Of a stretch of 64,000 nucleotides of DNA, positions 40,110-56,880 are shown in pieces. The notes below the pieces were generated by a model. The model had not been told where the DNA came from. It ran no database searches and saw only the letters and a program-made list of their open reading frames with translations. How positions within the stretch are numbered: position 1 is the stretch's first letter; every line of letters starts with the position of its first letter. Source of the stretch: Spirochaetota bacterium (GTDB taxonomy: Bacteria > Spirochaetota > UBA4802 > JAFGDQ01); contig JAZDKB010000044.1 of NCBI GenBank assembly GCA_043803405.1, positions 14,742-78,741 on the forward strand, given 5' to 3'. A program made the position numbers and the translations under genes.

Positions 40110-40481
40110 ATGATAAACTATTGGTATTTCTTTTTATTCTTTATCATTGCTGTTGCCTTTTCAATAGGTTTGCTGCTGGCAATAGCCCTTATTCGTTTTA
40201 AACGAAATGTCCACGGAGATAAAACATTCCCTTACGAATGCGGAGTCGATCCCATTACAGAGGGAGCGAGGGACGCTTACTCGATAAGATTTTATCTTCT
40301 TACTCTTGTTTTTGTAATCTTCGATGTTGAAACTCTTTTTCTATTCCCATGGGCAGTAATTCACGATAAACTTAAATGGTTCGGTTTTATTGAAATAACA
40401 ATTTTTATTGTCATATTATTATTCGGTTATTTATACGCATGGAAAGCCGATGCGCTTGATTTCAGGAGGAACATTGACTGA
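40110..40481 (+). CDS. nuoA: Complex I subunit A
   Basis: PYECG.DP, FVIFDVE..FLFPWA. Confidence 0.95.
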
Positions 40482-40977
40482 TAAAATTGAAAAAATGCCA
40501 TTCATTTTAACCACATTGGATAAAGTGATTACATGGGCACAAAAGAATTCCGTATGGCCGTTCGGCTCAGGACTTGCGTGTTGTGCTATTGAAATGGTTG
40601 CGACTGCTGCAGCTCGTTATGATATTTCCCGTTTCGGAATGGAAGTCTTCAGGGCTTCCCCAAGGCAGTGCGATCTTTTTATTGTTGCCGGAACAGTTAC
40701 TAAAAAAATGGCACCTGTTATCAGGCGCTTGTGGGAGCAGATACCTGATCCCAAATGGGTTGTCGCAATGGGAAACTGCGCAATATCCGGCGGACCGTTT
40801 CCGACATACTCGGTGCTTCAGGGGGTTGATAAAATTATTCCGGTTGATGTATATATATCAGGGTGCCCGCCGACACCGCAGGGATTGCTTCACGGTTTAA
40901 TGACTCTGCAGAAGAAAATAGCGACAGAACATCCGACAAAGGAGATATTTAGCGTCCATGATAGACCAAATTGTTAA
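40474..40977 (+). CDS. nuoB: Complex I subunit B
   Basis: [31 protein letters not shown] start after aggagg. Confidence 0.95.
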
Positions 40978-41446
40978 ATTTCCGGCATTGGAAGAAATAT
41001 ATCGTTCTATTGAATCCGGCTTTAAAGACTCAATAATAGAAAGCAAATTTGAGAAAGATGAGCTTTCCGTAAAAATTAAAAAAGACGATCTTCCAAAAAT
41101 AATACAATTTTTAATAGCTGAAAAAGGTTTTAATGCTCTTAACGATATAATAGCGCTTGATAATCTTTCCAGTATGAAACAAGGACAAAAGCGTTTTTCA
41201 GTACTTTATCAACTTTATAAATTTCCAGCGTATCTGCGTATACGTCTGATAGTTGATGTAGATGCAGGGGAATCGGTTGAATCTATTTATAAATTTTTCA
41301 AAGCATCGGATTGGGCGGAACGCGAAATATACGATATGTTCGGGATTAGTTTTAACGGCCATCCGGATCTGAAAAGGATTTATATGCCGAATAATTTTAC
41401 CGAATTTCCATTACGTAAGGATTTTCCATTAGAGGGGAAAAACTAG
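40958..41446 (+). CDS. nuoC: Complex I subunit C
   Basis: [20 protein letters not shown]....FPLRKDFP. Confidence 0.95.
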
Positions 41447-42540
41447 TGGCTTTCAAATTAATTGAAATAAATATGGGACCTCAGCATCCTTCCACACATG
41501 GGGTGCTGCAACTTAAGCTTACGGTTGACAATGAAGTAGTTCTAAAGGTTGAGCCCGTTATCGGTTATTTGCACAGGGGTATGGAAAAGTTATGGGAAAA
41601 CCGAACTTACACTCAAATACTTCCCTTTACCGACCGTCTTGATTATCTGGCAGCTATTTCTAATAATTTAGGTTATGTTCTTGCAGTAGAAAAATTGCTA
41701 GGACTTGAGATTCCAAAACGTGCACAATATATTCGGGTAATATTAACTGAGCTTCAGCGAATTGCCTCGCATATAGCATGGGTCGGATTTATGGCAAATG
41801 ATATAGGCGCTGCTTCTGTATTGTTATATACTTTTGATGAACGCGAAGATATTCTTGAAATATTCGAAGAATATGTTGGAGCAAGGCTAACCATTAATGC
41901 AATGCGCATTGGCGGCGTTCCATTTGATATAAGTGAAAACATAATAGCGAGAATCAATAAGTGCCTTGTTGAAATACCTAAAAAGATTAAAGATATAGAA
42001 CGACTGCTTAGTGCAAATCGTATCTGGCTTCATAGAACAAAAAATATCGGCGTCATGAGCGGGGAAGCTGCAATGAATTTTGGAATTACCGGCCCATGCC
42101 TGCGCGCGTCCGGTGTTAAGTGGGACATCCGTAAAAATATCCCGTATTCATCTTACGAAGATTTTGATTTTGATATAGCTTATGGTACTAATTGCGATGT
42201 TTATGATAGATATGCTGTACGTCTTGAAGAAATGCACCAGAGTATGCGTATAATACGTCAGGCAATCGATAAACTACCAGCTGGCGAAATCCAGACAAAA
42301 GTGCCAAAAGTATTAAAAGTACCTGCCGGAGAGGTTTTTTATAGTATAGAAAATCCGAAAGGCGAGCTTGGCTTTTATATAAAGTCTAATGGAACCGACA
42401 AGCCTGAAAGAGTAAAAATGAAATCACCTTCCTTTATAAATATGCAGGCACTGGAAACGATGTGTAAGGGATACCTTTTTGCAGATGTCGTTGCGATTCT
42501 TGGTTCGCTTGACATAGTACTTGGAGAGATAGACAAATGA
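41446..42540 (+). CDS. nuoD: Complex I subunit D
   Basis: NMGPQHPSTHGVL, GYLHRG.EK, DRLDY, GSLD.VLGE.D; no Ni-binding CxxC motifs. Confidence 0.95.
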   Translation: MAFKLIEINMGPQHPSTHGVLQLKLTVDNEVVLKVEPVIGYLHRGMEKLWENRTYTQILPFTDRLDYLAAISNNLGYVLAVEKLLGLEIPKRAQYIRVILTELQRIASHIAWVGFMANDIGAASVLLYTFDEREDILEIFEEYVGARLTINAMRIGGVPFDISENIIARINKCLVEIPKKIKDIERLLSANRIWLHRTKNIGVMSGEAAMNFGITGPCLRASGVKWDIRKNIPYSSYEDFDFDIAYGTNCDVYDRYAVRLEEMHQSMRIIRQAIDKLPAGEIQTKVPKVLKVPAGEVFYSIENPKGELGFYIKSNGTDKPERVKMKSPSFINMQALETMCKGYLFADVVAILGSLDIVLGEIDK

Positions 42541-43574
42541 TAGATATTGATACTATAATATATGAGTTTATCATACCGGTTATTAAGATAATTGTCGCTA
42601 TTCTGTTCCCAATGCTTATGGTAATTGCAATGGTGTGGATTGAAAGAAGGGTAATTGCAATTATACAGGAAAGATTAGGACCAAACAGGGTAGGTTTTCA
42701 GGGTGTTCTTCAGCCAATTGCAGATGCAATAAAGCTTTTTTTTAAAGAAGATATTGTTCCCAGAGATGCAGATAAATTGACATATAGGGTCGCTCCAATA
42801 TTAGTGTTGGGATCAACACTGCTCGCCTTCTGTTTTATTCCTTTCGGTACAACAATGCAAATAGGAACGTATAATCTAACATTCTGGGTAGCGGAGACTC
42901 CGGTAGGTTTACTGCTCGTTTTGGGCATTTCATCGCTTGCGGTTCTTGGTATAATATTTGCGGGATGGTCGTCAAACTCTAAATATCCGCTGATGGGAGC
43001 ATTACGTGGGGTTGTTCAGCTTTTAAGTTATGAAATTCCGATGGCATTAACTGTGTTGACGGTTGTTTTTATGACACAGTCCATGAATCTTATAGATATA
43101 GTAAATAAACAAAATGAAATGCAGATATGGTATGCTTTTTTAATGCCTGTTTCATGTGTAGTATTCTGGATAGCGGTTGTTGCTGATACAAATCGCTGTC
43201 CTTTCGACTTACCTGAAGGAGAATCTGAGTTGGTTGCGGGATTCCATACTGAATATTCAGGTCTTAAATTCGGATATTTCTATATGGGTGAATATGCGCA
43301 TATGGTGCTGGCATCTTCTTTAATGGTCACATTGTTTTTCGGCGGCGGGCTGCCACCTTTTGCGAATGTTAAATTTCTTTCATTCCTTCACTATGTTCCA
43401 GGATTTGTATGGTATATAATGAAAATATTATTCTTTTTGTACTTTTATGTATGGATAAGGGGAACGTACCCCCGTTATAGGTTTGATGAATTGATTAAAC
43501 TTGCGTGGAAATGGCTTATTCCGCTTTCAATATTAAATATTCTTGTTGTTGCATTTATCAGGTTGAGCATATGA
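42537..43574 (+). CDS. nuoH: Complex I subunit H
   Basis: ERR..A..Q.RLGPNRVG, PFDLPE.ESELVAGFHTEYSG, PRYRFD. Confidence 0.95.
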   Translation: MIDIDTIIYEFIIPVIKIIVAILFPMLMVIAMVWIERRVIAIIQERLGPNRVGFQGVLQPIADAIKLFFKEDIVPRDADKLTYRVAPILVLGSTLLAFCFIPFGTTMQIGTYNLTFWVAETPVGLLLVLGISSLAVLGIIFAGWSSNSKYPLMGALRGVVQLLSYEIPMALTVLTVVFMTQSMNLIDIVNKQNEMQIWYAFLMPVSCVVFWIAVVADTNRCPFDLPEGESELVAGFHTEYSGLKFGYFYMGEYAHMVLASSLMVTLFFGGGLPPFANVKFLSFLHYVPGFVWYIMKILFFLYFYVWIRGTYPRYRFDELIKLAWKWLIPLSILNILVVAFIRLSI

Positions 43575-44029
43575 TAAAATTTATTAAAAAGATATTCTTA
43601 ATAGAACTAATACAGGGCTTGCTTGTAACTTTAAAATATACATTATTGCCGAAGGCAACAATTCAGTATCCGGAGAAAGTAAAAGAGCCATCTGAGCGTT
43701 TCAGAGGTATTGTGCGGCTTTATCGTGATGAAGAAGGAAAGCAGTTATGTATAGCATGCAAAATGTGTCAGCGCGCATGCCCGCAATATTGTTTTGATAT
43801 AGAAGGCCAGAAAGATGAGAGCAACAAAATGCGGCCGGTAAAGTTTGATTGGAAACTTGAACGTTGCAGTTTTTGCGGATTATGCGCTGAAGCATGCCCT
43901 ACAGGCGCTATTCGCTCATCAAAAGAATTCCGTCTTGCGACACTGGACAGATCAAAGCTTCTGTTGCATTTGCCGGAAATGTATTGTGATTTCGATCTGC
44001 AAAAACATTTATTAGACGATTTAAAATAA
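43571..44029 (+). CDS. nuoI: Complex I subunit I
   Basis: T.QYPE, RFRG, CIACKMC...CP, C.FCGLC.EACP; start moved to 43571. Confidence 0.95.
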   Translation: MIKFIKKIFLIELIQGLLVTLKYTLLPKATIQYPEKVKEPSERFRGIVRLYRDEEGKQLCIACKMCQRACPQYCFDIEGQKDESNKMRPVKFDWKLERCSFCGLCAEACPTGAIRSSKEFRLATLDRSKLLLHLPEMYCDFDLQKHLLDDLK

Positions 44030-44133
44030 TAATTGAAGATTCATTTTAATAACGATTATTTTGAAATAAAGTTATAAATTTTTTAACAGTTTAATTAATC
44101 TATATGCAGGCTGTTTTTTAAGGAGAAGATATA

Positions 44134-44640
44134 ATGATTTCCAATATAATTTTCATATTTTTTGCCGTGTTATCAGTTATTTGTTCGTTGCTGGTAATTC
44201 TCCAAAAAAATGTTATGCATAGTGTATTATATTTGGCATTTACAGTACTTACAATTGCAGGAATATTTTTTACTCTACAGGCTGAATTTTTAGGTGCAGT
44301 TCAGATACTTGTTTATGCAGGCGGAATTGTTGTTCTTTATCTCTTTGTTATCATCATCGTTAATTTGAAAGAAATTAAAGTTGAGAAGAGAAAAATATTT
44401 CCCAAATTTTTTATATTTAGTACCGCGGCACTGTTCTTAATAGAAATGTTATATATTTTATTCAAGAATCAAATTGTTATAAATCCGGCTGTTGAATCCG
44501 GAATGGACATTAATTCATTGGCAGAAATGTTGCTTTCAAAATATATAGTACCATTTGAAATCGCGTCAATTCTGTTGCTTGCAGTGCTAATTGGTTCCAT
44601 AATAATTGCTAGAAGGACGTTATTGCATGATCCCGATTAA
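44134..44640 (+). CDS. nuoJ: Complex I subunit J
   Basis: AEFLGAVQILVYAGGI.VLYLFV, PFEIASILLL. Confidence 0.93.
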   Translation: MISNIIFIFFAVLSVICSLLVILQKNVMHSVLYLAFTVLTIAGIFFTLQAEFLGAVQILVYAGGIVVLYLFVIIIVNLKEIKVEKRKIFPKFFIFSTAALFLIEMLYILFKNQIVINPAVESGMDINSLAEMLLSKYIVPFEIASILLLAVLIGSIIIARRTLLHDPD

Positions 44641-44929
44641 TCAAATCATTGGTCTTGGACTTATAATATTCTTTATTGGACTATTCGGTGTTTTATTCCG
44701 AAAGAACCTCATAATTATTCTTATGGCTCTTGAATTAGTTCTAAACGGAATAAATATAATCTTAGTAGGTATAAGTTATTATATGAAATCGCCCATTGGT
44801 TCAATATTTGCGGTTTTTGTTATAATGATTGCAGTTGCTGAAGCGGCAATAGGTTTTGCGCTTGCGTTATCATATTTCAGACATAAAACGACTTATGATC
44901 TTGATGAGATCAGCGAATTAAAAGGTTAA
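44627..44929 (+). CDS. nuoK: Complex I subunit K
   Basis: RKNLIIILMALEL.LN, AVAEAAIG.AL. Confidence 0.93.
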   Translation: MIPINQIIGLGLIIFFIGLFGVLFRKNLIIILMALELVLNGINIILVGISYYMKSPIGSIFAVFVIMIAVAEAAIGFALALSYFRHKTTYDLDEISELKG

Positions 44930-44933
44930 AGAC

Positions 44934-46934
44934 ATGTTCTATCTGATTCCTGTTTTTCCACTAATTGGAGTATTATTAAATGGACTTTTTGGAATTAAAT
45001 ATTTTCCTAAAAAACTTGTCCATTCAATTGCAGTTGCTGGTATAGGTTTAAGTTTTATATTTTCAGTTATCAGTTTTTTTCAAATTGCAAACTCGACAGA
45101 ACCATACTTAATAAAAACATTATTCACTTGGGTACCGGCAAGTATAGTAAATCTTTCAAATAACGGTGCCACCTCTTTTGTAATAGATTTCGCATTCAGA
45201 TTCGACTCGCTTACATCAGTAATGACACTGGTAGTTACGGGTGTTGGACTTCTCATACATATATATTCAATCGGTTACATGGCTCATGATGCAAGTTATG
45301 CCCGTTTCTTTACTTACTTAAATCTTTTTTCTTTCGCAATGCTTATCCTGGTACTTGGTGCCAATCTGGCAATCATGTTTATTGGGTGGGAAGGTGTCGG
45401 GCTTTGTTCTTACCTGCTGATTGGTTTTTGGTTTAATAAAGATTCTGCTGCAAATGCAGGGAAAAAGGCTTTCATTACAAATAGAGTGGGGGACTTTGGA
45501 TTTTTGATCGGAATTGGATTTTTAATTTATTATTTTGGCACTATTGACGTTGCACAAATATCAACTCTTGTAGAGGGCGGGAATATAACAAAGGAAACAG
45601 CAACTATAATTGCATTGTGCCTTTTTGTCGGTGCTACGGGGAAATCAGCACAGATACCATTATATACCTGGTTGCCCGATGCTATGGAAGGTCCCACTCC
45701 AGTTTCAGCACTTATCCATGCTGCTACAATGGTTACAGCCGGTGTTTACATGGTAGCTCGAATGAACGTATTATTCACTTATTCCGGAACAGCTCTTGCA
45801 GTTGTTGCTCTTGTCGGAGTAATAACGGCAGTTTATGCTGCAACAATGGGTTTTGTTCAGACTGATATTAAGCGGGTTCTGGCTTACTCAACGATATCTC
45901 AGATAGGTTATATGTTTGTTGGACTTGGAGTAGGTGCGTATGCAGCCGGTGTTTTTCATCTAATGACACATGCTTTCTTTAAAAGCTTACTCTTCCTTTC
46001 GGCAGGAAGCGTAATTCATGCTATGTCCGGCCAGCAGGATATGCGTAAGATGGGTGGACTTAGAAAACATATACCAAAAACCTTTTTAGTAATGTTTGTT
46101 GCTACTCTCGCCATATCAGGTATACCCGGCTTTTCAGGCTTTTTCTCAAAAGATGAAATACTTGCTTCGGCGTATGCATCCGGTAATTATTTAGTTTGGG
46201 CACTTGGGGTTGTTGGCGCAGGAATGACTGCATTTTATATGTTCAGGCTTATTTTCATGACATTTTATGGAGATGAAAGAATTGACCATGAAGCTAAACA
46301 TCATTTGCATGAATCACCTAATGTAATGATTAAACCTTTACAAGTACTTGCAATTCTATCGTTCATTGGCGGATATGTCGGATTACCTCACATATTCGGT
46401 GGGCATAACTGGTTTGGACAATTTTTATCAAATACGGTCGGTCATCATGAGCTGGGATTGTCCGCACAAACTGAAATTTTACTTATGGCAGTATCTGTGG
46501 GGATCGGATTCTTTGGCATCTTAATGGCTTACATAATTTATGTAAAACTGAAAGGTCGTCCTGCAGAATCGCTAGCAGAGAAATTTAAAATATTCTATAA
46601 ACTTGTTCTAAATAAATACTTTATTGATGAAATTTATAATGGATTATTTGTTGGTGGTGCTATGAAACTTGGGACTCTACTCGGTAAATTTGACCTAGGA
46701 ATAATAGATGGGATCGTAAATGGAGTAGCATCCTTAGTAAGAAAGATCTCTACAGGATCTATGGCTATTGACAGCCATGTTGTTGACGGAGCAGTAAATG
46801 GAGTCGGCTCAATAAATAACTTTTTCTCTAAAATATTAAAAAGATTCCAAACTGGATATGTATACAATTACGCATTGTCGATAGTTATTGGTGTAGTAAT
46901 AATACTTACATTGACGGTAATTGTTTATAATTAA
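44934..46934 (+). CDS. nuoL: Complex I subunit L
   Basis: GKSAQIPLYTWLPDAMEGPTPVSALIHAATMVTAGVY. Confidence 0.96.
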   Translation: MFYLIPVFPLIGVLLNGLFGIKYFPKKLVHSIAVAGIGLSFIFSVISFFQIANSTEPYLIKTLFTWVPASIVNLSNNGATSFVIDFAFRFDSLTSVMTLVVTGVGLLIHIYSIGYMAHDASYARFFTYLNLFSFAMLILVLGANLAIMFIGWEGVGLCSYLLIGFWFNKDSAANAGKKAFITNRVGDFGFLIGIGFLIYYFGTIDVAQISTLVEGGNITKETATIIALCLFVGATGKSAQIPLYTWLPDAMEGPTPVSALIHAATMVTAGVYMVARMNVLFTYSGTALAVVALVGVITAVYAATMGFVQTDIKRVLAYSTISQIGYMFVGLGVGAYAAGVFHLMTHAFFKSLLFLSAGSVIHAMSGQQDMRKMGGLRKHIPKTFLVMFVATLAISGIPGFSGFFSKDEILASAYASGNYLVWALGVVGAGMTAFYMFRLIFMTFYGDERIDHEAKHHLHESPNVMIKPLQVLAILSFIGGYVGLPHIFGGHNWFGQFLSNTVGHHELGLSAQTEILLMAVSVGIGFFGILMAYIIYVKLKGRPAESLAEKFKIFYKLVLNKYFIDEIYNGLFVGGAMKLGTLLGKFDLGIIDGIVNGVASLVRKISTGSMAIDSHVVDGAVNGVGSINNFFSKILKRFQTGYVYNYALSIVIGVVIILTLTVIVYN

Positions 46935-47021
46935 ATATACTATCATTAAACTATTTGTTTAATAAATAGTTTAGATAATGAATAGACGAATTTATTATAA
47001 TTGAACATTTAAGGAGAAGTC

Positions 47022-48581
47022 ATGGATATTTTCGGTATTCCAATATTAACACTACTTACATTTTTCCCTGTAGCAGGAATTATCCTTCTGCTGTTTATTC
47101 CGGGTGCTAAATCAAATGCTCTGAAATTGGTTGCGAACATTGTTACAGCAATTGAATTTCTATTTACTCTATATCTATTAAAGGGATTTGATATATCAGC
47201 TGATGGTATGCAATTCATTGAAAGAGTAGATTGGATACCGCTCGCAAAAGTTCAATATCTTATGGGAATTGATGGCATTTCCCTTCTGCTAATACTACTT
47301 ACCGGAATGTTGACATTTATAGCCACATTAAGCTCGTGGTCCGCTATTAAAGATAGAATAAAAGAATATTACATATTTATGCTTTTACTGGAAGTAGGCA
47401 TGATCGGTGTATTTGTATCGCTTGATATGATTCTTTTCTATGTATTCTGGGAAGTTATGCTTGTTCCAATGTACTTTCTTATCGGTGTGTGGGGCGGAGA
47501 GCGCAAACTTTATGCGGCTATAAAATTCTTCCTGTATACCTTGTTTGGATCAGTAATGATGCTTGTTGCTATACTAGTACTATATTTTAACTATAATACA
47601 TTTGATTTACTAAAAATGATGGAATCAGGGACATATCTGCCATACGTTGTTCAGTGCTGGGTATTCTTCGCATTCTTCCTTGGATTTGCAATCAAAGTTC
47701 CTATGTTTCCGTTCCACACATGGTTACCTGATGCACATGTTGAAGCACCGACAGCTGGTTCAGTTATACTTGCCGGCGTTTTACTAAAAATGGGTACATA
47801 CGGTTTCGTTCGATTCTCTCTTAATTTATTTCCGGAAGCTTCTAGGACATTCGTGCCTTTAATAATTATACTTGCTCTTATATCTATCGTATATGGAGCA
47901 TTAGTATCCCTGATGCAGAAAGATATGAAAAAATTGATTGCATACTCTTCAGTTTCGCATATGGGATTTGTTATGCTTGGTTTATTTGCGTTTACGCCAA
48001 TGGCCATTAAAGGTGCTATATTACAGATGATTAATCACGGTGTAAGCACAGGAGCACTCTTCCTTATAGTAGGTGTTATCTACGAAAGACGTCATACCAG
48101 ATTAATTTCAGAGTTTGGCGGGCTTTCTTCTAAAATGCCTATTTATGCTGCAATATTTTTAATTATAACAATGTCCTCAATAGGATTGCCTGGTTTAAAC
48201 GGTTTTATCGGTGAATTTATGATTCTAATGGGAGTCTTTACAGTAAACTGGGTATGGGCTGCAATTGCGGCATCTGGAATTATTCTTGGTGCAGGATATA
48301 TGCTATGGATGTATCAAAGAGTTATGTTTGGTGTAAACGAGAACCCTGCTAACCAGAATTTAAAGGATTTAAACCTACGCGAATGCTTTGTATTCCTTCC
48401 GTTGATTATAATGGCTTTCTGGATTGGTATATATCCGAAACCGTTTTTAAATATAATAGACAAACCGGTTGAAAAAATAGTACGCGTAGTCAATCCCGAT
48501 TATTATAAAAAAGAAGCGGTTGTCTTTAAAACCGATGATTCCAAGGCTCACCAGCCAGCTAAAAAGGCAGAGGTACATTGA
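47022..48581 (+). CDS. nuoM: Complex I subunit M
   Basis: FAIKVPMFPFHTWLPDAHVEAPTAGSVILAGVLLKMG. Confidence 0.96.
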   Translation: MDIFGIPILTLLTFFPVAGIILLLFIPGAKSNALKLVANIVTAIEFLFTLYLLKGFDISADGMQFIERVDWIPLAKVQYLMGIDGISLLLILLTGMLTFIATLSSWSAIKDRIKEYYIFMLLLEVGMIGVFVSLDMILFYVFWEVMLVPMYFLIGVWGGERKLYAAIKFFLYTLFGSVMMLVAILVLYFNYNTFDLLKMMESGTYLPYVVQCWVFFAFFLGFAIKVPMFPFHTWLPDAHVEAPTAGSVILAGVLLKMGTYGFVRFSLNLFPEASRTFVPLIIILALISIVYGALVSLMQKDMKKLIAYSSVSHMGFVMLGLFAFTPMAIKGAILQMINHGVSTGALFLIVGVIYERRHTRLISEFGGLSSKMPIYAAIFLIITMSSIGLPGLNGFIGEFMILMGVFTVNWVWAAIAASGIILGAGYMLWMYQRVMFGVNENPANQNLKDLNLRECFVFLPLIIMAFWIGIYPKPFLNIIDKPVEKIVRVVNPDYYKKEAVVFKTDDSKAHQPAKKAEVH

Positions 48582-50023
48582 TGGATTATTCTTTATACAT
48601 TGCCCAACTTAAATTTATTGTTCCTGAACTTATAGTACTAGCATTTGCTCTTGTTGCCATGTTAGCCCATTTGTTCATAAAGAGCAAAGGAAAAAGAATT
48701 GCCGGCATAATATCTATTTTAGGTTTGATTGCCGGAGCAGTAGCATTGCTAAAGACACCCATTACAAATGGCGAGATATACTCTGGAAATCTTGTAGTAG
48801 ATCAATTCGCTTTCTATTTTAAAATAATATTTTTAATATCTGGATTACTTACAATAGTATTGTCTTTTAAATTCTTTGATGTTGAAAAATCGGAGCCTGG
48901 AGAAGCATATTATCTGATTATGTTATCAGTAGTCGGGATGATGTTCGTTGTTTCTGCTGTTGATCTAATTACATTTTATATAGCATTTGAAACATTTGCA
49001 CTTTCATCATACATATTAGCAGGCATCTTTAAAAAGGACAAAAGATCTTCTGAAGCGGGCATAAAATATTTTATTCTGGGGACCTTAAGCTCGGCTATTA
49101 TGGTATTAGGTGTTGCCTTGCTGGTAGGAATTGCCGGAAGCACTAATTATGCTGAAATTTCAAAAATATTATCGTCAACCGCGACGTCAAAACTGGCCTT
49201 AACCGGAATGCTATTGTTGTTTTCAGGATTATTCTTTAAATTAGCATTAGTTCCTTTTCATATGTGGACACCGGACGTTTATGAAGGAGCTCCTACTCCA
49301 CTGGTTGTGTTTTTATCTACAGCCCCAAAGGCAGCATTATTTGCTATTCTAATAAGAATGATCTTCAGCATATTTACTGTTTTCCAAAATCAATGGACAA
49401 TGGTTTTCCAGGTAATTGCTATCGTAACTATGTTCTGGGGTAACCTGGCTGCGCTAACACAGAAAAACATTAAAAGAATGATGGCCTATTCATCAATAGC
49501 ACATGCAGGATACATTATGATGGGTCTTGCTGCATTCGGAGCTATGGGAAATATTGCTGTACTTTTCTATTTATTCGTTTACTTATTTATGAATGCTGCA
49601 GCTTTCGGGATGATCCTTCTTGTTCAAAAACAAAATGGTTTTGGCGAAAATATTGATGATATGAAGGGATTTGCCAAAAAATCACCAGTAATGGCATCGG
49701 GAATTATTGTTCTTTTGCTTTCACTTACAGGAATTCCACCAACTGCCGGATTTATGGGCAAGTATTTTTTATTTGCTGCTGTAGTAGAAAAAGGGCTTTA
49801 CACGTTAGCTATTATTGGAGCGTTAAACTCGGTTATTTCATTATTTTACTATTTCCAGATCGGCAAAGCAATGTTTATGGAAGAGGCTATTGCTGAGGCC
49901 ACTCCGGATAAATCCTATTATGCACGTTCAGTCATACTTTTATCTGCTATAATAATATTAATAATTGGGATATTACCAACAGCATTAACCTACTTTGTTA
50001 CTGCTTCGACCTTGGTAAAATAA
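48578..50023 (+). CDS. nuoN: Complex I subunit N
   Basis: EAGIKYFILG, FKLALVPFHMWTPDVYEGAPTP, KRMMAYSSIAHAGY. Confidence 0.96.
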   Translation: MMDYSLYIAQLKFIVPELIVLAFALVAMLAHLFIKSKGKRIAGIISILGLIAGAVALLKTPITNGEIYSGNLVVDQFAFYFKIIFLISGLLTIVLSFKFFDVEKSEPGEAYYLIMLSVVGMMFVVSAVDLITFYIAFETFALSSYILAGIFKKDKRSSEAGIKYFILGTLSSAIMVLGVALLVGIAGSTNYAEISKILSSTATSKLALTGMLLLFSGLFFKLALVPFHMWTPDVYEGAPTPLVVFLSTAPKAALFAILIRMIFSIFTVFQNQWTMVFQVIAIVTMFWGNLAALTQKNIKRMMAYSSIAHAGYIMMGLAAFGAMGNIAVLFYLFVYLFMNAAAFGMILLVQKQNGFGENIDDMKGFAKKSPVMASGIIVLLLSLTGIPPTAGFMGKYFLFAAVVEKGLYTLAIIGALNSVISLFYYFQIGKAMFMEEAIAEATPDKSYYARSVILLSAIIILIIGILPTALTYFVTASTLVK

Positions 50024-50619: not shown

Positions 50620-51036
50620 ATGATTAAAACTCAACTCATGTATTATAAAAAATTTTTATTCTTTATTTATCTCGTATTAATTATATTAAGCATTTCATGC
50701 TTTGGAAAACCGCATATTGAATTCAATGAGGTTAAATACGATTTTGGTATTATTAGCCGAAATTCCGAATTTAAACATATTTTTCCTTTTAAAAATACGG
50801 GAACAACAACATTAACTATTGAAAATGTAAAAGCCGGATGAGGCTGCACTGGTGTCCTTCTTTCACAGAAGGATATCCCTGCCGGAGGCAATGGGGAAAT
50901 TGAAGTAACTTTAAAAACCGGTAATAAAGATGAGAAAATAAAAAAATCGATATATGTTTATACAAATGATGATAATAACAAAACTGTTGTTTTAAAAGTC
51001 GAAGGTATTATCACAGCAAAGAGGAAGACTATTTAA
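50620..51036 (+). CDS. DUF1573-like exported protein with in-frame TGA (putative selenocysteine, G-U-G-C)
   Basis: YDFG.I...H.F.FKNTG...L.I.NVKAG[TGA 50839-50841]GCTGVLLSQKDIPAGGNGEIEVTL...KKSIYVYTND; frame stays open to TAA 51036; 11-bp hairpin at 50851-50877; start could be 50638. Confidence 0.75.
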
Positions 51037-53714: not shown

Positions 53715-53999
53715 ATGAATAATATTATTACTGAAGTTAGAGTTTTTCCAAAAGACAATCTTGGTAAGACTTTAGGATTTGCAAACATCACATTGATGGA
53801 CAAATTCGTTGTTAAAAATTTACGCATCGTTCAGGGGGAAAGAGGAATTTTTATAGGGATGCCTTCAAACAAGAGAAAAAACGGAGATTTTATTGACTTA
53901 TTTTTTCCTATAACGCAGGAAGCGCGCGAGGAAATCACATCTGCAATTATTAAAAAATATCAAGAATCTGTCCGATTTAATGTGCAGGTAGGCTTATAA
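53715..53999 (+). CDS. spoVG: SpoVG-family nucleic acid-binding protein
   Basis: IT.VRV, A.IT....FVV..LRI..G..G.F..MPS.K...G.F.D..FPIT.E.R. Confidence 0.92.
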   Translation: MNNIITEVRVFPKDNLGKTLGFANITLMDKFVVKNLRIVQGERGIFIGMPSNKRKNGDFIDLFFPITQEAREEITSAIIKKYQESVRFNVQVGL

Positions 54000-54452
54000 T
54001 CGCTTTTCAATTTATTCCCCAATTTATGGCATGTACTTAATATTTTAATTAGCCCTTATTTATAACGCATTATTGAAACTAAGGGGTTAATATTCTTATT
54101 TTTTATGCATTATTACAATTAATTCCTATAAATACTATAAAAATATTATATTATTTGTATATTTAATCACTGTCGATAATCTGAAAAAATATTCATTCTG
54201 GACTATTATCCTTATTATTAGACTTTGTGTCTAATATTTTTTATAATTTAATTATCGATTCAAAAAATAACTACATTTTTAAATATTTCTTCTTCGTCTT
54301 TAATATTACCTGTTCGCAAATTTAATTCTAATGAATTGTAATTTTTTTTAGAAATACTCTTAAAAATTATATATTGACTGTTAAATGAATAATTTGTTAA
54401 AATTTAATAATTTTAAATTGGTAATTTAAGCCTCGCTTTTGATTAAGTAAAT

Positions 54453-55556
54453 ATGAGTAATAAATCGATTTTAATAATGTGCTCTGTCAGATGGTATAAC
54501 GCATCTGCTCATTATGCATTAACTCTGGCACTGAGTCTGAGAAAATCTGGTTTAAACGTAATTTTATTCGGTTTACCTGGAAGCCCTTTCTTAAGCAAAG
54601 CAAAAGAATATAGATTTAATTTAATTGAAAATATCGGATTAATGAATCAAGGAATTGTTCAATATATTATAAATTTATACAAATTTCGAAAACTAATAAT
54701 TAAAAAGAAAATAGATCTTTTAAATCCTTATATTTCGAGGGATCATTTTTTTGCCTATCTGTCGCTTTTCGGAAAGAACAAAAATATTGTTCGCACCAGA
54801 ACTGACAGCAAAATACCTAAGAGCAACATTTTTAATAAAATCTTTTACAGGATATCATCCGGTAATTATATTGTGTCCTCTAAATATATGATTTCACATA
54901 TTACTGCCATGGGATTACCGGAGAATCGAATAACTGTTATTCCTTTAGAACTGAATTATAAAGATTATTCGACTTATAAATCCAAAAAAAATCTTAAATA
55001 TGAATTAGGTATTAATAAAGTTAAAAAAGTCGTATCATTTGTCGGCAGACTGGATAGAATAAAAGGTGTTGAATATTTTATAAAAAGCTTTAGTTATTTA
55101 AAAAATAAAAACAAATTCCATTATATCGTTTCAGGTGAGGAAATAAATCTTTTTATTGATGAACTTAAGGATTTAGCTTCAAGCTTGAAAATTAATAGCA
55201 TTTCATTTATCGGCAAAGCAGATGATGCAAGGGATATTTTAAAAATTACTGATATCGGTGTTGTCCCTTCGATCGGATCGGAAGCAATTTGCAGAATTGG
55301 TCTTGAGATGTTGGCATTCGGGATACCTATTGTCGGAAGTAATATAAATTCTATTCCTGAGCTGATAAATGAATACGGTGGCAGAGTTGTAAGTCCGGGT
55401 TCTCCATTAGAAATAGCAAATGCTTTAGAATATCTTGCAGTACCTGAAAATTACAGAAATATACAAAATCAAATTAAACAGGCATTTCAAAAAAAGCAGC
55501 CTGATCAATTTGTTTTGTCACACGTAGATATTTTTTTAAAAGAGTTAAACAAGTAA
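54453..55556 (+). CDS. GT4-family glycosyltransferase
   Basis: FVGRL..IKG, V.PS..SE......LE.LA.G.P.V.S....IPE. Confidence 0.9.
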   Translation: MSNKSILIMCSVRWYNASAHYALTLALSLRKSGLNVILFGLPGSPFLSKAKEYRFNLIENIGLMNQGIVQYIINLYKFRKLIIKKKIDLLNPYISRDHFFAYLSLFGKNKNIVRTRTDSKIPKSNIFNKIFYRISSGNYIVSSKYMISHITAMGLPENRITVIPLELNYKDYSTYKSKKNLKYELGINKVKKVVSFVGRLDRIKGVEYFIKSFSYLKNKNKFHYIVSGEEINLFIDELKDLASSLKINSISFIGKADDARDILKITDIGVVPSIGSEAICRIGLEMLAFGIPIVGSNINSIPELINEYGGRVVSPGSPLEIANALEYLAVPENYRNIQNQIKQAFQKKQPDQFVLSHVDIFLKELNK

Positions 55557-55735
55557 GAATTACCTTTCTATAAAAATAACCTAATGCAATAAAAAAGATT
55601 TGAAATGTTTAAACCGCAAAGAAATGACTTATTGTAATAATCAGATTGTTTCTCTTGACCTTATGATACACAGCTTAGAAGTTATTAATTATCGTTTTGA
55701 GATGAGTTGAATTATTTTTGTCTTTAGGAGGCGTT

Positions 55736-55972
55736 ATGAATATTTTTATTGAATATTGTAATGCATGAAACTATTTACCTCATGCTACCCGTGTGGGAGT
55801 GGAACTTAGGACAAAGTTTCCTGATGCAAATATTAAATTGATCGAAGGCAGCGGCGGTATATTCAATGTTAAGTACAACGACAAACTTATTTATTCCAAA
55901 CAAAGTATTGAGCAACAACGATTTCCAGATAATGGGGAAATTACCAAGCTGATAGAAAAAGAGATAGGTTGA
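55736..55972 (+). CDS. SelW/SelT/SelH (Rdx)-family selenoprotein, CxxU
   Basis: RBS aggagg; MNIFIEYCNA[TGA 55766-55768]NYLPHATRV..GSGGIFNV...LIYSK..RFP..GEI; missing from the ORF track. Confidence 0.9.
55784..55800 (+). promoter_or_regulatory. Candidate bacterial SECIS element
   Basis: gct-a(bulge)-ccc-GTGT-ggg-agt hairpin; loop G 23 nt after the UGA. Confidence 0.6.
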
Positions 55973-56079
55973 TATTTAACAGGAAATTAGTGGGTTTGAA
56001 ATAACTTTGATTTATTAAATTCATAAATAAATTTAATCTGAAAAGTTATGGATGATTTTTGTTTTCAGGAATAATTTTT

Positions 56080-56880
56080 ATGAAGCAACTCGATATCGCT
56101 TTTTCGCCTTGCCCTAATGATACTATTATTTTTCATGCAATGCTTCACGGTCTGGTAGATACGCGAGGGTTAAAGTTTATTCAGTATATTTATGACGTGG
56201 AAACATTAAACGAAAAAGCATTTGCAGGCAAATTCCGTGTAACCAAGATGTCTTTTGCCGCGTATCTGAGGTTAACAGATATATACGATATACTGGATTC
56301 GGGGGCTGCTCTTGGTTATGGCTGTGGCCCCCTCGTTGTTGCCCGAAACTCCGGGATCGACCTACACTCTGCTACGATTGCTGTGCCCGGGCAAAATACA
56401 ACCGCCAATCTGCTTTTCAGGCTCCGGTATCCGGAAGTTAAGAATATCGAGTACACAAGGTTTGATAATATCATGGACGGAGTGCGGAACGGCAGGTATG
56501 ATGCAGGCGTGATAATACACGAGGGACGTTTCATTTACTCTGATTATAATCTTGTAAAGATAATAGATCTGGGCGAATGGTGGGAACAGGAAACCGGCAT
56601 GCCAATCCCTCTTGGATGTATCGCTATCAAAAAGGATGAGGAAACAATTTTGCATAAGCACGATGTTGAATCAATCATCAGAGAATCGCTTAGCTTCGGT
56701 CTAAGTAACCGACAGGCATCCCGTAAGTTCATAAAGTCACATGCCCAGGAAATGGATGATACTGTTATAGACAGCCATATTAATCTATATGTAAACGAGT
56801 TTTCGCTTTCGCTTGGAGAGAAGGGCAGGGAAGCAATTCGTGTTCTTAACGAGATGGTTAAGAAGAGACAAGCAATATAA
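56080..56880 (+). CDS. mqnD: 1,4-dihydroxy-6-naphthoate synthase (futalosine menaquinone pathway)
   Basis: FSPCPNDT..F.A, DVE.LN, SG.ALG.G.GP, PG..TTA.LL, IHEGRF.Y, DLG.WWE..TG.PIPLG, HI.LYVN. Confidence 0.93.
   Translation: MKQLDIAFSPCPNDTIIFHAMLHGLVDTRGLKFIQYIYDVETLNEKAFAGKFRVTKMSFAAYLRLTDIYDILDSGAALGYGCGPLVVARNSGIDLHSATIAVPGQNTTANLLFRLRYPEVKNIEYTRFDNIMDGVRNGRYDAGVIIHEGRFIYSDYNLVKIIDLGEWWEQETGMPIPLGCIAIKKDEETILHKHDVESIIRESLSFGLSNRQASRKFIKSHAQEMDDTVIDSHINLYVNEFSLSLGEKGREAIRVLNEMVKKRQAI

Follow-up and report, generated by a model that had tools for sequence, protein, structure and literature searches.

The closest described counterpart of the gene analyzed here is OS_HP2, which was among the six new families of Zhang and Gladyshev in 2007 (PMC1976440). 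A figure legend of that paper presents predicted SECIS elements for the other five, and OS_HP2 alone has none there (PMC1976440). OS_HP2 was tied to pfam07610 with a UxC motif in a paper from 2008 (PMC2398784), and a "DUF1573 domain-containing protein, UGC" is listed as a selenoprotein in reviews (PMC9312934, PMC13188914). In two other articles, DUF1573 appears only in tables (PMC10434189, PMC10682907). No function of DUF1573 or OS_HP2 was described in the literature searched.

The consensus used by bSECISearch for the bacterial SECIS is a loop of 3-9 nt on a stem of 4-16 bp, with a G as the first or second base of the loop, a distance of 16-37 nt from the UGA and an MFE of at most -7.5 (PMC13188914). 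Some bacterial selenoprotein genes are reported to fit no SECIS model (PMC13188914, PMC10778597). A canonical SECIS is present in 87.4% of the BSepDB entries and absent in 12.6% (PMC13326102), and atypical SECIS elements have been named as a gap in the work on deep-Sep (PMC12013277).

We analyzed a DUF1573 gene with an in-frame TGA in a stretch of DNA of 64,000 nucleotides (the window), together with its relatives in other genomes and metagenomes. The protein type has been known since 2007, whereas the two-hairpin signal predicted after its UGA is not described in the literature searched. At the protein level the outcome is a correction of annotation, concerning a known selenoprotein kind that is cut short by gene callers or given a Trp at the TGA. 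The RNA signal deserves more attention; the family provides a concrete two-hairpin model, more than 100 natural variants, and probable natural reversions to Cys that lack the hairpins. The features are collected in Table 1.

Table 1. Features of the DUF1573 locus and of other loci mentioned in the text. Positions are those of the window unless a contig of the same genome (G000) is given
Feature	Position	Strand	Details and basis
Predicted DUF1573 selenoprotein gene, 138 aa, in-frame TGA = U74	50620..51036	+	ORF reading with TGA = U; Pfam
Hydrophobic N-terminal helix with lipobox-like Cys at its end; predicted signal/lipoprotein peptide	50620..50703	+	helix 2-27 in structure model
DUF1573/ASH-PapD-like immunoglobulin domain, residues 33-130	50716..51009	+	Pfam, structure model, fold match
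TGA (putative Sec codon 50839-50841) and U-G-C-T motif	50839..50850	+	U74 in loop connecting predicted strands 65-72 and 76-80
Hairpin 1, putative spacer	50851..50877	+	11-bp stem (two G-U pairs), G-less loop UUCAC 50862-50866
Hairpin 2, candidate SelB-binding element	50876..50897	+	GCC-GGA-GGC apical stem-loop, loop GGA 50884-50886
SelT/SelW/SelH-family selenoprotein gene, C-x-x-U	55736..55972	+	TGA 55766-55768; NF041051 94.2 bits, cut-off 88
NADH:quinone oxidoreductase-like genes	40110-50023	+	by eye
SpoVG, group 1 glycosyltransferase and MqnD-type menaquinone biosynthesis genes	53715-56880	+	
Cys-only DUF1573 paralogue (locus L003), T-S-C-G-C-T	G000:C15:89240-89536	-	35% identical; neither hairpin
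YeeE/YedE-like membrane protein, candidate selenoprotein (locus L184)	G000:C19:134390-135061	-	weak NCBIfam matches cross TGA
Short SelD-like match with internal TGA (loci L027, L187)	G000:C13:39398-39523	-	model positions 34-75
nifD, Mo nitrogenase alpha chain (locus L186)	G000:C3:11239-13023	-	above NCBIfam cut-off

A DUF1573 gene with an in-frame TGA

Under table 11 the DUF1573 frame ends at VKAG*, and 64 sense codons lie beyond this point before a TAA at 51034-51036. When the TGA is read as U, the motif stands in the context K-A-G-U-G-C-T, and the Pfam model of DUF1573 (PF07610) matches the protein with 83.5 bits (cut-off, 26.1) over model positions 1-97 of 98 in an alignment that spans the TGA. 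The window protein thereby shows the features by which DUF1573 U-G-C selenoproteins are listed, namely PF07610, a TGA in place of the first Cys codon in C-G-C, and the existence of Cys homologues. An ATG at 50638 is a possible alternative start codon, and the N-termini of relatives align about equally well from M7. A Cys closes the hydrophobic N-terminal stretch in 16 of the 24 Sec genes from the same order, and in the window this sequence is LSISC. The protein is probably an envelope protein anchored in the membrane and may be a lipoprotein.

The gene is flanked in the window by a response-regulator gene on the opposite strand and by glgX. Scans for promoters and terminators gave results at chance level (10 found versus 8.9 expected). 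The NADH:quinone oxidoreductase-like genes of the window resemble nuoA-D and nuoH-N, and genes resembling nuoE, nuoF, or nuoG are missing from this run.

Selenocysteine machinery and genetic code of the genome

The genome contains a complete set of selA, selB, selC, and selD; selD, tRNA-Sec(UCA), selA, and selB are clustered on contig C26, and selD carries a TGA of its own. A coding-potential scan combined with NCBIfam found further TGA genes of known selenoprotein kinds, encoding HdrA, MvhD, a HesB-like protein, and SelW. The SelW-like gene, which lies in the window among the SpoVG, glycosyltransferase, and MqnD-type genes of Table 1, is evidence of Sec use only and is separate from the DUF1573 element.

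Ordinary G loops are located 17-27 nt from the UGA in the SelD, HdrA, MvhD, and HesB-like genes, and the SelB of this genome therefore probably reads G loops. In the SelW-like gene, the most stable hairpin has a loop without G, and a weaker alternative fold presents a GUGU loop 22 nt after the UGA.

TGA terminates 319 of the 1672 ORFs of at least 300 codons in the genome and is thus an ordinary stop elsewhere. According to the genome tRNA scan, the sole tRNA-Trp has a CCA anticodon and reads TGG, and the sole tRNA with a UCA anticodon is tRNA-Sec. Genetic code 4, in which TGA encodes Trp, is at odds with the use of TGA as a stop and with a tRNA-Trp of the CCA type only.

Other TGA loci of the genome were also considered. 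In the YeeE/YedE-like candidate the TGA lies 41 codons before the end, in the context A-D-G-U-P-L-G-H-G, and a short SelD-like match likewise has an internal TGA (Table 1). The candidates C18:285261 and C13:45142 from the genome scan were dropped because they had no NCBIfam match, and C3:12942 was dropped because it sits upstream of nifD.

Conservation of the TGA and relationship of Sec and Cys forms

The DUF1573 protein was matched in 27 of the 41 genomes searched (its own and 40 relatives). Thirty loci were retrieved, of which 24 (from 23 genomes) carry a TGA in the column of U74; TGC stands there in 5, and 1 was without a hit. A duplicate (L059, of L039) and the locus with no hit (L055) were removed before the same-order counts. 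The TGA form is confined to selB-positive genomes, with 23 of 23 falling among the 31 genomes with selB and none among the 10 without a selB match, although kinship among the genomes means that these counts are not independent. Of 151 genomes sampled from the phylum, 16 had a strong DUF1573 match, and the TGA forms all belonged to the order of the window. Among the listed matches of a degenerate DNA pattern in metagenomes, 104 of 120 are DUF1573 U-G-C-T genes and 16 are not DUF1573; another 6 were duplicates or cut off, leaving 98 distinct genes.

The C/U-x-C pair is invariant in the aligned proteins (29 of 29). At the Sec column, six of the seven close database proteins (P0002, P0003, and P0005-P0008) have W and one has C, which suggests that gene callers adopted the code with TGA as Trp on short contigs.

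A TGA that is flanked by coding sequence on either side and has been kept in 23 genomes and at more than 100 metagenome loci is difficult to reconcile with a true stop created by a nonsense change or an assembly error, or with reading as Trp or Cys, and we consider such readings highly improbable. The frequent use of TGA to end long ORFs, a single tRNA-Trp that reads TGG, and a tRNA scan with one UCA-anticodon tRNA and no other also speak against them. They are favored by the W found in the database homologues, by a TGA codon without independent read coverage, and by the SECIS-dependent Cys tRNA described for some bacteria (PMC13582414).

In a quick tree of 104 columns, all 70 Sec rows and 7 Cys rows form one group, with an SH-aLRT of 86 that is not strong. 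Because the 7 Cys rows nest with all 70 Sec rows, a single origin followed by several reversions to Cys is suggested. The Cys forms L048, L050, L052, and protein P0004 are nested among Sec forms and are probably reversions from Sec to Cys. The three loci have kept the gene neighbors of their Sec relatives and have lost both hairpins, and selB is still present in two of their genomes. The Cys-only paralogue in the genome of the window is listed in Table 1. A scan of a collection of genome contigs with the single protein yielded 1 locus.

The preliminary description of this DNA had proposed a DUF1573 selenoprotein of U-G-C type, whose frame continues past VKAG* for 64 sense codons, and had seen support for Sec usage in a nearby SelW gene. 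The continued frame is borne out by a domain that crosses the TGA, the selenoprotein is supported by the conserved TGA, the Pfam match, and the Sec machinery, and the SelW gene proved to be a C-x-x-U gene scoring above the cut-off of its family (Table 1). It had also pointed to selA, selB, selC, and selD and to an alternation of TGA and Cys as things to look for, and both were found; the possibility it raised of a TGA unique to this assembly is contradicted by the 23 genomes with a TGA in the same column. We suggest that the UGA at the first Cys of the DUF1573 C-G-C is very likely decoded as selenocysteine.

Two predicted hairpins downstream of the UGA

Two hairpins are predicted to follow the UGA in the window. 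Hairpin 1, with an energy of -13.7 kcal/mol, has a stem that begins with the 10th base after the UGA and a loop at a distance of 20 nt. The stem of hairpin 2 is short and bulged, its loop is 42 nt after the UGA, and its energy is -9.0 kcal/mol; the pair probabilities of its apical part are 0.98-0.99.

The same layout was found in the relatives. In the 24 same-order genes, which had been gathered by protein search and not by a DNA pattern, a G occurs within the first two loop bases of hairpin 1 in 2 genes and of hairpin 2 in 23, and the spacing of hairpin 2 from the UGA is 38-43 nt in all 24. The corresponding counts of a loop G for the 98 distinct metagenome genes among the matches listed are 11 for hairpin 1 and 96 for hairpin 2, the GG of the hairpin 2 loop being partly fixed in this set by the search pattern itself. 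A hairpin 2 spacing of 37 nt or less was observed in 1 of these 98 listed genes. The geometry consists of a median of 10 nt, then hairpin 1, a linker of 0-3 nt (2 nt), and an 8-nt arm.

Hairpin 1 is kept as a structure, whereas its sequence, loop length, and stem register vary. Its length varies little, being mostly 16-23 nt, and when hairpin 1 is subtracted, the spacing of hairpin 2 has a median of 19 nt and lies at 16-37 nt in 91 of the 98 genes (among the matches listed). The loop of hairpin 2 falls on the codons of an I-P-x-G-G turn; as many Cys-only homologues also have this turn, the motif was probably co-opted for the hairpin. The P-G-G was dropped as a hallmark of Sec forms, since it is present in 70 of 182 Cys-type domains.

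An 11-bp stem starting 10 nt after the UGA, with a loop lacking G, had already been noticed in the preliminary description and interpreted as a possible non-canonical, G-less SECIS. The stem and its UUCAC loop are as described, and hairpin 1 is real, but the missing G does not hold as the departure from the SECIS model, as the G-loop hairpin 2 had been missed. Because hairpin 2 follows hairpin 1, the departure lies in the distance and in the two-part layout.

Selection on the hairpins

Dinucleotide shuffling of the 52-nt region gave an unremarkable result (z of -1.56; 17 of 200 shuffles as stable). Because this was not significant, a synonymous-codon test was adopted, in which the protein is recoded with local codon usage and the threshold is a p value of at most 0.05. 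In the recoding of the window protein, the hairpin region was significant (p 0.003). Of the 24 same-order genes, 20 passed for hairpin 1 and 15 for hairpin 2, compared with 3 and 0 for the flanks. The metagenome genes among the matches listed behaved similarly, with 64 of 98 for hairpin 1, 53 of 98 for hairpin 2, and 4 of 94 and 5 of 97 for the flanks; divided by spacer type, hairpin 2 passed in 51 of the 78 listed genes with a short spacer and in only 2 of the 20 with a long one. Cys-form genes passed in 1 of 12 (hairpin 1) and 0 of 12 (hairpin 2), although this control set is small, is lower in G+C, and includes 5 same-order Cys genes; 5 hits with a Cys motif and without a Pro-Gly anchor at the expected place were left out of it.

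The codons themselves are constrained. The Lys codon of hairpin 1 is AAG in 20 of 20 genes, although the genome uses AAA for 71%. In hairpin 2 the closing Gly is GGC in 22 of 22 and the Ala is GCC in 20 of 22, and the codon of the loop Gly varies freely.

Covariation was assessed with structures derived from these same sequences. In the metagenome set, where no more than 64% of the hairpin 1 cells are paired in one fixed register, 87 cells changed on both sides, compared with 43.9 for shuffled data (a count reached by 0 of 500 shuffles), and hairpin 1 in the same-order set had 6 such cells, against 1.8 (2 of 500 shuffles as high). Hairpin 2 had no pair changed on both sides in the same-order set, which is no better than shuffles; it is mostly conserved letter for letter, with one covarying pair in the metagenome set. 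Locus L054 was excluded from the alignment (A1) because of its shorter spacer. In Sec genes, and not in Cys genes, both hairpins are under selection over and above that on the protein.

These results bear on which of the two hairpins carries the signal. Hairpin 1 is in the right position, with a loop 20 nt after the UGA, and has the stronger synonymous signal as well as covariation. It could then be proposed that hairpin 1 is the only SECIS, recognized by its shape and with no need of a G loop, and that hairpin 2 results from the Pro-Ala-Gly-Gly codons as a side effect, which would also agree with the lack of hairpin 2 covariation in the same-order set and with the G-less loop in the best SelW fold of the genome. 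However, the loops of hairpin 1 share no common base or length and its stem register shifts, while the synonymous choices in hairpin 2 are fixed (the GCC and the closing GGC) and its rate of passing among the short-spacer genes listed contrasts with that of the 12 Cys genes. Four other selenoprotein genes of the genome have G loops. We therefore regard hairpin 1 as the sole SECIS as quite improbable, and suggest that hairpin 2 is likely the SelB site.

A proposed decoding mechanism

When the UGA is in the A site, about 10 nt would remain single-stranded inside the ribosome. Hairpin 1 would then fold away about 20 nt of excess length, possibly stacking on hairpin 2, and hairpin 2, located 0-3 nt beyond, would bring its GG loop within reach of SelB, the effective distance now being 15-26 nt, which is the normal range. 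We consider this two-part SECIS, with hairpin 1 as a spacer and hairpin 2 binding SelB, reasonably probable.

A different role for hairpin 1 has to be weighed against the geometry. The mRNA enters the ribosome at about 10 nt after the UGA, and hairpin 1 begins at a median of 10 nt after it, is stable in the window, and has no conserved sequence. Sec could thus be inserted with hairpin 2 binding SelB and with hairpin 1 pausing the ribosome or hindering release factor 2, not acting as a spacer; the delay would give a SelB bound at an unusually large distance more time to act. Some tolerance of distance is implied by the proposal of one SECIS for both UGAs of UxxU motifs (PMC13582414). However, the narrow length of hairpin 1 restores the normal range in 91 of the 98 genes among the matches listed, and the linker is 0-3 nt; moreover, the pause and spacer roles are mutually compatible. 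A pausing role that replaces the spacer appears unlikely to us.

Returning to the spacer reading, we lean slightly towards the view that the DUF1573 selenoprotein genes use a distinct bacterial SECIS class, in which a spacer hairpin free of sequence requirements stacks and places a GG loop for SelB. If this is true, it would explain part of the 12.6% of entries that have no canonical SECIS (PMC13326102). The first dozen codons after Sec would also be freed of SelB-binding sequence, which would provide a design rule for recombinant selenoproteins.

Fold, gene neighborhood, and possible function

The structure model, obtained with an alignment of 29 sequences (mean pLDDT, 93.6), consists of a helix at the N-terminus followed by an Ig-like domain of seven strands, in which a short loop ahead of C76 holds U74. 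Among known folds the best match is 2qsv_A from Porphyromonas gingivalis (Z of 14.0 and rmsd of 1.6 over 101 residues; Foldseek E of 1.4e-07). The identity to 2qsv is 17-19%, its aligned domain has no Cys pair at the position of U-G-C, and the match gives no function. The fold of the DUF1573 protein is common to the ASH and PapD-like Ig domains (2qsv, HYDIN, and VesB). In sequence searches of solved structures, the single protein had no hit, and the alignment gave no more than weak matches to Ig domains. The C-terminal extensions of the longer forms contain only Ig-like Pfam families (8 scanned).

Across 84 loci, the neighbors include genes for HAD hydrolase (19), glgX (16), priA (16), DegP (7), and ArsP (4). 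The commonest neighbors are not redox genes; they are mostly housekeeping genes and are bound to lineages. VKOR-DsbA fusion genes flank 3 of the 84 loci, and thioredoxin and CcdA genes flank 3 others. A Sec-type DUF1573 gene adjoins the VKOR-DsbA fusion, and an ArsP permease gene, at L045, L049, and L056, and adjoins thioredoxin and CcdA genes at L062, L088, and L099.

It is conceivable that after export U74 and C76, placed on a beta-turn of the PapD-like domain, cycle between selenol/thiol and selenenylsulfide. The protein would then help to form, repair, or protect disulfides of envelope proteins and might be fed by electron carriers of the Dsb, VKOR, or CcdA type. We tentatively suggest, with slightly more doubt than confidence, that the exposed U-G-C is an envelope selenol/thiol redox center tied to disulfide handling.

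Cys/Sec pairs at close spacing are common binding sites for soft metals. With the decoding unchanged, the U-G-C could be a site for a soft metal or metalloid (copper, mercury, or arsenite) or a structural selenenylsulfide, which we regard as the principal alternative to the redox role, possible but rather doubtful. Although the ArsP-type permease genes at 4 of the 84 loci and a non-enzymatic Ig-like fold with no thioredoxin-like part are in agreement with this, genes for metal transport or metal resistance are not frequent neighbors, and a VKOR-DsbA gene is also present at three of the four ArsP loci.

Comparison with OS_HP2 and the canonical SECIS

The window protein has the same domain as OS_HP2 (NF041425) and its U-G-C at the same column. 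The model "OS_HP2 family (seleno)protein" (NF041425) gives it 84.4 bits, below the cut-off of 100, and is nevertheless its best NCBIfam match; the relatives L073 and L054, unlike the window protein, score above the cut-off (148 and 135, respectively). The window protein is lipoprotein-like with a single domain, whereas most metagenome forms among the matches listed add a C-terminal extension of 160-300 residues. It also differs from OS_HP2 by one extra codon between U and the Pro-x-Gly-Gly turn, and its order is spirochaete-related.

A description of a tandem or distant bacterial SECIS of this layout was not found in the literature searched. Like the canonical SECIS, the element lies within the coding region directly 3' of the UGA and contains a GG loop, in hairpin 2. 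Loop size (3-9 nt), stem length (4-16 bp), and MFE (at most -7.5) are within the canonical limits for both hairpins. However, the loop G and the distance of 16-37 nt are not combined in one hairpin: hairpin 1 lies at 20 nt and has no G, and hairpin 2 has its GG at 42 nt. The canonical SECIS is one stem with an apical loop, whereas here two side-by-side hairpins are conserved together.
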